Shown: positions 47,494 through 49,691 of the stretch, piece after piece
How positions within the stretch are numbered: position 1 is the stretch's first letter
How the letters are laid out: every line of letters begins with the position of its first letter
Source of the DNA: Vermamoeba vermiformis
Lineage: Eukaryota
Reading direction: 5' to 3'
Assembly (NCBI GenBank): GCA_045837725.1
Contig: JBEWZL010000145.1
Location: 1 to 64,000, forward strand
DNA: 64,000 nt
Translations under genes and position numbers: made by a program
Notes under the pieces: model-generated
Told to the model about the DNA's origin: nothing
What the model saw: the letters and a program-made list of their open reading frames with translations, nothing else
Databases searched by the model: none

Positions 47494-49691
47494 TTATGGA
47501 TTTGCTCCAGGCATGTTTGGCAACCAAAATGCAATATTCGAGCAAGCAGTCGCTGCCATCATGTACTTTGGATTCCACTAAGATATCATTAGTATTCCAG
47601 TAATATAGGCACTATTATTCTAGCCTTACTTGCACGCATCCAACAGGTCCTGCATGACGTCGTTCTTCGGTGCCCCAAACAGCGACCTCTAACAGCTCGT
47701 CGTTGGACTTGTTGACTTGTAATGGTTGATCTTTCTTCGGCAATGACCAGCTGTACACTAATCCGTCTTCAGAACCTAAAAAGAATTCGGTTTAGTAAAT
47801 TTCTAGAATTGCGATCCAGTACGAGTGCTAAGAAATTTCTTCGCAACAAACAAAAAATGCCCATAATAATTCTAATAACGATAAATAAGCTATTATAACT
47901 ATGTTTCCTATTAATAATTGATATTGCTTGTAGATGGTGCTAAAGTCAATGTGCTGCATCGAGAAGTGTCCTTTGGACGCATTATACGATCGTATTAACC
48001 AATCCACGACTGCAAAATGACTGTGTAAGCGGTCAAATTGCTTAATCAATGCTATATTAACACTATAGTATTGATTAGGGACCGGTTAATGCTCGTTCTT
48101 ATAAACCATGAACGCATCTCGGCCTCTTGGCTAAGCTGAAAAATACTTCGTAGTATCTTTCGAAGATTAATTGCAATAGCGATTGATCTTTGAACAATTA
48201 CAGAGGCATGCGACGCCATCACCAAAACAAGCAATTATTTTTTAATTTTTAAATTTGATTTTTGTAAATTGTACTGGCTTTCTAAATCTATTTTTGAAAG
48301 TAATATTAATATTACTTACCGGCTAATAAATACTTCGAATCAGGTGTGAATGAGGCCTCTAAATTACTGCCATGATCGTTCTTGAAGTGCGAGTATTGAT
48401 AGAGCTAAACAGATGCGTTAGTACTTTATATTTAAGTGTTATACTATACTATTTGTTTTTACTTACTTCAGCGCCATTAAATGCGTTAAATACAAGAATA
48501 GTTCCTTCACGAGTATTTGCAAGCAGATAATCGCCGTCATTAGAGAACTTCAAGCCAGTGAATTGATACGAGCTCTTCGTATTAATAACCGTGAATGCTC
48601 CCTATTAAAACGACATTAGTCATATATTATAAATAAGTTGTAATAACGCGAGGCAAAGCGGATCCAGTCGTACCTGAGTAAGCGATCGAAAATCAAAAAA
48701 TTTAATTGTGCTCGGAGAGAATGCTGCACCGAACATAACACCTTGTCCTTCAATAGAAGCACATATCGAATACGAATCGGTCGTCAGAAGAGCCTACATA
48801 GAACGTAGATTAAATATGGTTCATGGTACATCCGCTTCTCAATAAGTGCTAGACCACCCGCGGCACTATAAGTCATCCATATTACTATACACTAGTACGT
48901 ACCTGACAATTAGGGGTCCTTAGATCCCACATTCGAATCGTGCCATCACGTCCAGCGGAGATGAATGTATCGTTACGTGGTGACAACGATAGCGATGTGA
49001 CTCTGCACAGATATTAGTCTATATTACTAATATATAGTGCGGTACTTACTTATCTGTATGTCCTACGAAATTTCTAATATAAGCATTCTCGTGTAACGAC
49101 AAATACCGGATCGCATTAGCGTCTACGAGAGAAAGAGTTATTATGGGCTAATAATAGAGTATTGTATATAAGTACCGTGATAACCAGAATATGAGTTTGA
49201 AGCTGTTAATACGGCGTAGTTGTAGTGAGTAAACCGGATCAGATCTGCGCCGTACTTTTTGCAAAAGACTTTTTGTGTTTTATCGCTAATAAAAATAATT
49301 AATATTATGGGTTTAATATTGAGTACGATAAAATAGTCCTAGAAATATCAAAGTAATTTTGCTGCATTTTTTTGAATTTTTCAAACTATTTCAGATCGCT
49401 CTAGAAATTATTGAATTGAACAAAATATTGCATTAAAAATATACCTATCTAAGTAAGGAATTTTAAATAGCTCGATCGTTCCATCATCGCTCGCAGCAAC
49501 CATGGACTCGCCATCCTTGTAGAAATCTATCGAATTGACTCTGCATAGCTATTAAATAGCAAAATAATATTAATAAGTAATTCTTTACATAAAATAATAT
49601 TTAAAATTAATAGCAAGCTTACGTTAGCGTTTTTATGGACGTGTCCGATCGCCATGGACTTGATAAGTTCAGGAGTTATTTGCATCGCCAT
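47494..49691 (-). CDS. WDR82: WDR82/Swd2 WD40 subunit of COMPASS
   Basis: [57 protein letters not shown] and [18 protein letters not shown]. Confidence 0.93.
47923..48243 (+). ncRNA. Unidentified ~310-nt structured RNA candidate antisense within WDR82 intron 47776-48319
   Basis: Nested end-to-end helices, two 16-bp hairpins and a GUAA-capped hairpin, with many G-U pairs that work only on the + strand. TATA-like element ~30 nt upstream, T6 downstream, and a U2-like segment at 48111-48158. Confidence 0.7.

Follow-up and report, generated by a model that had tools for sequence, protein, structure and literature searches.

Does the 544-nucleotide (nt) intron of a WDR82/Swd2-like gene in Vermamoeba vermiformis carry, on the strand opposite its host, a gene for a structured RNA, and if so, to which family might that RNA belong? 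We addressed this question in a 64,000-nt stretch of contig JBEWZL010000145.1 (positions 1 to 64,000; hereafter the window), for which a preliminary description had proposed a multibranched RNA of ~310 nt, assigned to no family, lying antisense in this intron. The predicted fold, its strand asymmetry, Rfam searches, RNA libraries and a homolog at the same locus all support that proposal, and we consider it probable that the element is a stand-alone gene, nested antisense in the WDR82/Swd2-like intron, whose product would be a stable small nuclear RNA (snRNA)-like RNA of ~290–315 nt, representing an undescribed family and having a U2-derived 3' third. The U2 5'-end-like module (48112–48162) had been overlooked in the preliminary description. 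Two spans define the locus:

47776 to 48319, minus strand: intron of the WDR82/Swd2-like WD40 host gene (exon open reading frames (ORFs) on the minus strand; spliced joint in the reads of a related organism).
47923 to 48243, plus strand: structured element at its widest, bounded on the 5' side by the outermost base of the terminal helix and on the 3' side by the last base of a run of six T (T6); this may be the primary transcript.

Read on the minus strand, the intron begins with GT at 48319–48318 and ends with AG at 47777–47776; exons on that strand translate into WDR82/Swd2-like WD40 sequence, and six RNA reads from a related organism (run X8) contain the spliced joint 47773->48322. The GC-richer island that had first drawn attention to the intron is borne out, with 39.6% GC over 47923–48235 compared with 27% and 16% in the intron flanks on its two sides.

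The plus strand of 47923–48243 has a predicted minimum free energy (MFE) of −110.0 kcal/mol, against −69.8 ± 5.05 kcal/mol for dinucleotide shuffles (z −7.97; 0/100 shuffles equal), whilst the minus strand reaches −96.1 kcal/mol (z −5.52), i.e. 14 kcal/mol weaker, both strands folding better than the shuffled controls against which the preliminary description had proposed to judge them. Versions shortened to the RNA-supported ends give z values of −6 to −7 (mononucleotide shuffles). When 320-nt sliding windows (step 160, both strands of the 64 kb, n = 798 folds) were compared after regression of MFE on GC content, the element on the plus strand was the strongest outlier, 5.5 standard deviations (SD) below the regressed value; its own minus strand ranked next (−3.7 SD), ahead of a window overlapping it (−3.5 SD), and no unrelated window went lower than −2.76 SD. 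The energy of the mirrored plus-strand structure on the minus strand (−102), which falls below that strand's MFE, is an artefact of the scoring of non-canonical pairs and was not used.

Most of the helices previously drawn by eye recur in the full-length MFE structure, in several cases with altered limits. The helix 47923–31/48227–35 (9 bp), the hairpin with the GUAA loop (48018–24/48029–35) and the 16-bp hairpin at 48159–94 (48159–74/48179–94) are present as described; the helix placed at 47933–39/48214–20 appears as 47935–39/48217–21, that at 47945–54/48206–14 as three short helices (47945–47/48212–14, 47949–52/48206–09 and 47954–56/48201–03), and the hairpin at 48041–79 with 15 bp (48042–56/48064–78) in place of the 16 claimed. 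Two of the proposed pairings are absent from the full-length MFE structure, namely cctct/agagg, for which we found no place, and 47960–69/48112–21, which returns in shortened form (47960–64/48117–21) when 47958–48140 is folded alone. The parts of the predicted RNA, compared where possible with the equivalent locus on a metagenome contig (L001, described below), are as follows:

47923 to 47931, plus strand: 5' arm of the 9-bp terminal helix (partner 48227–48235), in the MFE structure and conserved in L001.
47935 to 47956, plus strand: 5' strands of the long-range closing helices (partners 48201–48221), in the MFE structure; GGUGCUAAAGUCAA is identical in L001.
47958 to 47990, plus strand: variable hairpin, poorly conserved and shortened in L001.
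47992 to 48092, plus strand: conserved three-way-junction domain, of the same architecture in independent folds of the window and L001.
48012 to 48041, plus strand: hairpin A, with an AA/AA internal loop and a stem unchanged in every variant seen.
48042 to 48078, plus strand: hairpin B, stacked on hairpin A in the fold.
48094 to 48114, plus strand: hairpin C (CGUUC/GAACG), retained in L001 with one G-C to G-U change.
48159 to 48194, plus strand: 16-bp hairpin with four G-U pairs, in the MFE structure.
48201 to 48235, plus strand: 3' strands of the closing helices and the tail ...CCAUCACCAAAACAAGCAAU, in the MFE structure; RNA contigs end at 48229 and 48231.

The three-way-junction domain is made up of an outer helix (47992–48000/48084–92), a short helix (48003–05/48079–81), the junction CCACRACU, and hairpins A (GCAA-AA-UGACUG / CGGUCA-AA-UUGC) and B. 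A kink-turn in hairpin A was considered and rejected, GA being wanting on the non-bulged strand. The segment AUUGCUUAAUC (48036–48046) has two possible pairings, a local one within hairpins A and B and a distant one with GAUUAAUUGCAAU (48165–48177), which lies in the 16-bp hairpin; given the truncated two-sequence alignment, RNAalifold chose the long-range pairing 48036–46/48165–77, which L001 retains via U-A to U-G changes and which is possibly an alternative conformer, or else an artefact that arises because L001 lacks the 3' arm.

Is such an RNA present in cells? An index of sequencing runs queried with 47880–48300 returned seven runs from three studies holding part of the query, two of them recorded as RNA and one matching half or more of the sampled words; four of the ten runs listed (X1, X2, X5 and X8) were aligned to 47300–48900, X3, X4, X6, X7, X9 and X10 being left out. 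X2, a root metatranscriptome recorded as RNA, yields a 301-nt contig over 47945–48229 with 11 differences, directly past the end of which (48229) the Illumina adapter begins. X1, a wastewater library labelled RNA-Seq, yields a contig over 47967–48231 with 0 differences and a second (48004–48048) from a more distant variant. All three contigs from these two RNA-labelled studies are confined to the element, with a depth of 0 on the exons and on the intron outside it across the 1.6-kb stretch:

47945 to 48231, plus strand: core covered by discrete contigs in RNA-labelled libraries (X2 47945–48229, X1 47967–48231; contigs strandless).

X5, for which the type is not recorded and which may be DNA, covers 47888–48082 and so extends into the upstream flank. 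The raw RNA reads of the related organism (X8) cover the exons, in spliced form, and more thinly (at no more than exon depth) the conserved parts of the element, a distribution that fits an RNA gene and an unspliced intron alike. Together these data speak well, though not conclusively, for a stable RNA that exists as a discrete unit, measures 285 nt or more and has its 3' end near 48229–31.

Comparison with relatives indicates that the fold, and not merely the sequence, has been retained. A scan of metagenome contigs with the most conserved hairpin as the pattern identified one contig, L001; pattern scans of genome contigs and viral contigs found 0 homologs beyond it. L001 has the same exon and intron start and, within that intron, a homolog of the element that is cut off by the contig end at the position corresponding to 48175. 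Ungapped identity between window and L001 reaches 85–86% in three blocks of the element (47923–57, 48004–50 and 48112–75), the stretches between which are variable, as against 82% for the exon and 65% for the intron flank; the insertions and deletions are in part not multiples of three (e.g. 1, 5, 8 nt), and the conservation is therefore not that of coding sequence. Independent folds of the two sequences arrive at the same three-way junction, with its short YCC/GGR helix and single-stranded CCACRACU, enclosed by an outer helix that differs in sequence (9 bp in the window vs UAUUC/GAAUA in L001). Compensatory changes from U-A to C-G occur at 48003/48081 in L001, and equally, judging by its loose ends, in the distant X1 variant, as well as at 48055/48065 in the X2 and X5 variants. 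Hairpin B retains its 8-bp base in L001, the top 7 bp and the loop being replaced by a 3–5-nt loop. The junction itself reads CCACGAC in the window and CCACAAC in three relatives, and the X2 contig has zero differences from 48127 to 48229.

The same comparisons bear on which strand is read. The bias of G-U pairs towards the plus strand, already remarked upon in the preliminary description, holds in the plus-strand MFE structure, which contains 12 G-U pairs and three 1x1 mismatches, only one of them C-A; a C-A mismatch here would be a G-U pair on the other strand. One-sided changes in relatives (G-C to G-U at 47961/47987; U-G to C-G at 48024/48029) retain pairs on the plus strand and would make or leave A-C mismatches on the minus strand. 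Runs of four or more T within the element number one on the plus strand (T6 at 48238–43) and three on the minus strand. From the asymmetry of the fold, the G-U bias and the one-sided changes, we infer that it is probably the plus strand that is transcribed.

Candidate signals for transcription of the plus strand are found on both sides of the RNA-supported core:

47900 to 47922, plus strand: upstream block conserved with L001 (TATGWTTYC...TATWAATA) by alignment, a candidate promoter that includes the TATA-like TATTAATAA at 47909–47917.
48238 to 48243, plus strand: T6 run, candidate terminator for RNA polymerase III (Pol III), with no other run of four or more T on this strand of the element.

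The TATA-like element earlier placed at 47891–47900 is present but is not conserved in L001, where it is TATTAATAA that is conserved instead; the block 47900–22 aligns with L001 given a 4-nt gap, and a second alignment puts it differently. A start 25–30 nt downstream of 47909–17 would fall at ~47937–45, and the RNA-supported sequence begins at 47945. The T6 end likened to those of Pol III genes is likewise present, though the RNA contigs stop at 48229–48231, 7–9 nt before it. The mature RNA may accordingly comprise ~285–295 nt and lack the outermost 9-bp helix, the 5' arm of which (47923–31) may be part of a precursor, or promoter-proximal DNA, rather than of the mature RNA. Judged from these signals, Pol III transcription with 3' trimming is plausible and an snRNA-type gene of RNA polymerase II would also be possible. 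RNAs of the type 3 Pol III class (U6, 7SK, RNase MRP RNA, plant telomerase RNA) are transcribed from upstream promoters, and the element resembles them in that a TATA-like box precedes the earliest RNA-supported bases by ~25–30 nt, runs of four or more T are lacking internally and a T6 lies just downstream, as well as in its ~300-nt length, its long-range 5'/3' helix and its many hairpins. Unlike them, it matches none of these RNAs by sequence or covariance model, its RNA contigs stop before the T-run, and no element resembling a proximal sequence element was identified.

Two further observations concern this part of the window. A 16-nt block, GCTAAGAAATTTCTTC (with the palindrome GAAATTTC), is identical at 47826–47841 and at ~2925–2940 of L001; it sits in the poorly conserved intron flank, ~85–100 nt upstream of the RNA gene, and could act as an upstream promoter element for that gene or as a signal for splicing the host intron. 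Elsewhere in the window, a T6 run like that at 48238–43 stands a few bases past the end of a solitary 5S rRNA gene (18055–18173, plus strand, 104.7 bits), a further hint of Pol III; no TATA-like box is evident just upstream of the 5S gene, and no tRNA gene occurs anywhere in the 64 kb.

What kind of RNA might this be? The one recognisable segment lies towards the 3' end:

48112 to 48162, plus strand: U2 snRNA 5'-end-like module, colinear with U2 nt ~1–45.

The look-alike of stem-loop I (48118–35) is identical at 17/18 positions to nt 8–25 of the Rfam U2 consensus, including the same C-A mismatch, and in gapped local alignment with consensus nt 1–46 the element scores 43 compared with 17.3 ± 2.8 for dinucleotide shuffles (max 28; 0/2000), L001 scoring 35 compared with 16.9 ± 2.9 (max 31; 0/2000). 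U2 was picked for this comparison after the Rfam match had been seen, and the margins of ~9 SD (window) and ~6 SD (L001) were judged to survive that choice. The likeness starts at ~U2 nt 1–3 and is colinear from there: 14 nt past the stem-loop I look-alike stand GUAGUAUCU and then UUC (48150–62), where the U2 consensus has GUAGUAUCUGUUC, and a further stem-loop follows at the position of U2 stem-loop IIa. The U6-pairing segment, GAUCAAGU in the Rfam consensus, where it separates stem I from GUAGUA, is replaced by CUGAAAAAUACUUC (14 nt) in the window and by AUACUUC (7 nt) in L001. In the hairpin 48143–56, identical in window and L001, this replacement segment is predicted to pair with the GUAGUA box, AUACU pairing with GUAGUAUCU, which is itself present unchanged in both; AAUACUUCGUAGUAUC is also identical in the two. 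The apical AUUGCA (48170–75) of the 16-bp hairpin occurs also in L001 and in a loose end from X8, and resembles the loop of U2 stem-loop IV or U1 stem-loop II.

The element is nevertheless not a U2 gene or a member of that family, because the U6-pairing segment, the Sm site and the 3' stem-loops are missing: no RAU(3-6)GR occurs on the plus strand of 47923–48243, the 3' half of the U2 model is unaligned to the element, and there are no stem-loops III/IV. The score does not reach the 46-bit gathering score of the U2 model (RF00004), and in L001 Rfam finds no U2 model match, only one to a miRNA model. Whilst the element thus has the U2 5' end and stem-loop I, GUAGUAUCU-UUC and the next stem-loop in their U2 positions, its module lies ~190 nt inside a larger RNA. 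On sequence grounds it would most simply be a captured U2 5' fragment, retained since. Downstream of the gene, GAUUUUUGU at 48256–48264 (plus strand), presumably a textbook Sm-site-like string, lies 13 nt past T6 and outside the RNA-supported region, and no RNA contig gets there; the weak full-length U2 alignment of Rfam extended to 48279.

Two precedents for displaced snRNA sequence can be compared. In SINEU elements, short interspersed elements (SINEs) with U1- or U2-derived heads (PMC4494074), an snRNA-derived segment is, as here, reused in another small transcript. In SINEs the snRNA part forms the 5' head and the copies are many and dispersed, in contrast to the element, in which the U2 part is internal/3', no second copy is found in the 64 kb and the position is syntenic in L001. 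Utopia/Keno retrotransposons (PMC4640811) target U2 genes and thereby create U2 gene fragments at new junctions, with downstream U2 sequence from nt 39, and in this they offer a parallel to the element. A footprint of such an insertion was rejected, as GUAGUAUCU-UUC runs uninterrupted across the nt 39 site and no retrotransposon sequence adjoins it.

Taken together, the stand-alone RNA gene that we favour would be transcribed on the plus strand from its own TATA-type upstream promoter (the conserved block 47900–22), with Pol III as the likelier polymerase in view of the TATA, the lack of an internal run of four T, the T6 and putative 3' trimming to ~48229–31. The long-range 5'/3' helix would close the RNA around six hairpins, and the product would work in trans as the scaffold of a nuclear ribonucleoprotein (RNP). 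Its 3' third would descend from the first ~45–70 nt of U2, comprising stem-loop I, the GUAGUAUCU branch-site box and the stem-loop at the IIa position, and the start of homology at ~U2 nt 1–3 would fit an origin in which a 5' fragment of U2, retroposed or duplicated, was captured. As the U6-pairing segment has been replaced by sequence that pairs with the GUAGUA box, the module should be unable to act as U2; with low confidence, we suggest that it may still bind proteins recognising the U2 5' domain, in which case the RNP would be snRNA-like, linked to splicing and either regulatory or a decoy. A more specific version, which we think doubtful, is that the RNA forms the core of a previously unknown snRNP-like particle: an older structured RNA would have taken up a U2 5' domain that then lost the segment for U6 pairing and now offers stem-loop I and a self-locked GUAGUA box to proteins that bind the U2 domain, so that the particle would serve in this lineage as a dedicated regulator, chaperone or decoy in the assembly of the U2 snRNP or the recognition of branch sites. 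WDR82/Swd2-type factors have a role in the termination of snRNA and snoRNA transcription.

A number of observations weigh against a stand-alone, partly U2-derived RNA gene. The strand of the transcript, its ends and its level rest on unstranded data, the contigs being strandless. The contigs begin 22 nt or more after 47923 and end before T6 by the distance given above; because they fall short of both ends, Pol III termination at T6 and the terminal 9-bp helix are without RNA support. X1 is flagged 'RNA? (probably DNA)' despite its RNA-Seq label, and the runs were chosen by this very stretch, such that coverage of the element is in part selection; selection does not, however, explain contigs from two independent studies that lie within the element and have 3' limits 2 nt apart, one of them bounded by adapter. 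The comparative evidence rests on one homolog that ends at the equivalent of 48175, before the 3' partners of the closing helices and of hairpin 48159–94, both of which consequently lie outside it. Four substitutions in the variants (47980, 48064, 48084 and 47995) break predicted pairs; the first three are located at helix ends or in the variable hairpin, and the partner of 47995 is outside coverage. Finally, the Rfam match to U2 is by itself not significant (13.6 bits, E 2.9, in a 601-nt slice; 13.0 bits, E 0.97, in a 146-nt slice).

A quite improbable alternative, in our estimation, is that the element is a very divergent member of a known family beyond the reach of Rfam, such as telomerase RNA, RNase MRP/P RNA, signal recognition particle (SRP) RNA, a 7SK-like RNA or snR30/U17. 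Its size, its 5'/3' closing helix, the combination of TATA and T-run and its apparent abundance do resemble those of MRP, SRP and 7SK RNAs. At gathering thresholds Rfam nevertheless finds only the 5S rRNA gene in the 64-kb window, and at E <= 10, in slices of 601, 196 and 146 nt, it returns miRNA precursors, a bacterial thermometer, a ciliate snoRNA (minus strand) and the weak U2 match, of which all but the last we regard as noise; no P, MRP, SRP, 7SK, U3, telomerase or snoRNA model matches the plus strand of these slices. The search thus agrees, at both thresholds, with the view that no known family fits, and at E <= 10 it bears out the earlier failure to see features of SRP RNA, RNase P/MRP, U3 or telomerase RNA. 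The CR-I and CR-V patterns of RNase P/MRP are absent on both strands; AAAGUC (47942–47) and ACAGAG (48200–05) faintly resemble these regions, but the two strands pair in a nested helix that no P3 hairpin precedes. For SRP RNA, the only AGCA on the plus strand (the helix 8 motif) is that of the 3' tail at 48230.

Other families were considered individually. For the box C/D and H/ACA snoRNAs, box C (RUGAUGA) is absent on both strands, neither strand has C/D boxes, and no snoRNA model matches the plus strand; an ACA does stand at 48227–29, 0–2 nt from where the contigs stop, but the RNA is predicted to fold into a single closed multibranch domain instead of two hairpins joined by a hinge. For snR30/U17, AAACCAU (48103–09), the m2 motif of snR30, lies in a hairpin loop, is changed in X2 and is different in L001. 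The U6-like strings ACAGAG and GAAGAUUA and the U4-like AUUGCUUAAUCA, picked out by eye, are best regarded as pareidolia, there being no U4/U6 model match at E <= 10. TTGTGG is the telomeric repeat of one Mucorales species, and the window contains neither TTAGGG nor TTGTGG repeats; the only template-like junction, CCACGAC here, varies between close relatives (CCACAAC) and no Rfam telomerase model matches, both of which speak against telomerase RNA. Telomerase RNA evolves fast, and PMC4133162 reports it in Mucorales only as one tentative candidate in one genome; the same paper records that Rfam-type searches of a Mucorales genome recover RNase P, MRP, SRP, U1, U2, U5 and U6, which we use as context only. 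No description of an RNA of this kind was found in the literature searched, which did not take in the supplement of PMC4133162; the several Mucorales ncRNA candidates listed there might bear on the novelty of the element.

We assign a similarly low probability to a transcript acting in cis on the WDR82-like pre-mRNA, by pairing with it or by disturbing its transcription or splicing. The element is antisense, and perfectly complementary, to ~300 nt of the host intron and its nesting is conserved in L001, but the structure has been retained via compensatory changes and helix replacement, whereas antisense regulation needs no elaborate conserved fold, and the RNA is seen where the host exons are absent. 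A role in cis is, moreover, compatible with one in trans.

There is only a slim chance, in our judgement, that the element is a non-functional relic, i.e. an insertion resembling a miniature inverted-repeat transposable element (MITE) or a decayed U2 pseudogene or array fragment, with the fold a by-product and the contigs derived from DNA or unspliced pre-mRNA. Such an origin would fit the perfect 9-bp inverted termini (ATTGCTTGT/ACAAGCAAT) and the U2-derived sequence, the possibility that X1 is DNA, the X5 contig (47888–48082) that enters the upstream flank, and the poly(A)-type reads of X8, whose depth on the element does not exceed that on the exons. However, sensitive blastn with 47881–48300 finds in the 64-kb window no second copy (only the query itself and its own hairpin, the remaining matches being <=36 nt with E >= 0.02), and hence none of the many dispersed copies that the preliminary description would have taken as the mark of a MITE; the flanking sequence has no target-site duplication beside the inverted termini, and the element is conserved at the same locus at 82% exon identity. 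The 12:1 ratio of G-U pairs to C-A mismatches and the compensatory changes are unexpected for DNA-level palindromes, and the X2 library is recorded as RNA, with its contig adapter-bounded at the end of the element.

A stable RNA from the host strand (an intronic snoRNA or stable intronic sequence RNA) is very improbable: small RNAs encoded in introns do usually share the strand of their host, the minus strand folds with a z of −5.52 and the contigs are strandless, but the 12 G-U pairs become A-C mismatches on that strand, its MFE is weaker, the one-sided changes in relatives would break its pairs, it contains three runs of four or more T, C/D boxes are lacking on either strand and the U2 likeness is on the plus strand.

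The surroundings of the locus may be summarised briefly. Introns in the window read as GTAAGT...TACTAAC...TAG. Adjoining the WDR82-like gene is a gene-sized presence/absence difference: 45996–47492 (~1.5 kb) corresponds to ~280 nt in L001 (2264–2544) between the same conserved flanks, and the stretch missing from L001 contains a 326-aa ORF (46046–47026, minus strand) with no Pfam match. Amongst eight long ORFs of the window searched against Pfam, solely leucine-rich-repeat, Kelch/EGF, MACPF and DUF7869 domains were found; DUF7869 is a strong match (E 3.4e-39; ORF 62679–63635, minus strand), and the MACPF, Kelch + EGF and leucine-rich-repeat ORFs lie at 14417–15142 (minus), 28598–30289 (plus), 3184–4767 (plus) and 34525–36099 (minus), some of these matches falling under the Pfam curated cut-offs.

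To our knowledge, eukaryotes have few abundant, conserved and highly structured small RNAs that fall outside the catalogued families, and those that we are aware of, namely 7SK, Y RNA, vault RNA and lineage-specific telomerase RNAs, each led to a new RNP. The candidate described here offers a defined locus, a testable secondary structure, RNA-level evidence in environmental libraries and an unexpected link to the U2 5' end. The locus could seed a new covariance model for annotating a poorly annotated lineage. Should the U2-derived module prove not to be functional, this would still be a clean stand-alone ncRNA gene, antisense-nested in an intron; should it be functional, it would provide a natural case of a spliceosomal RNA domain reused in another RNP.

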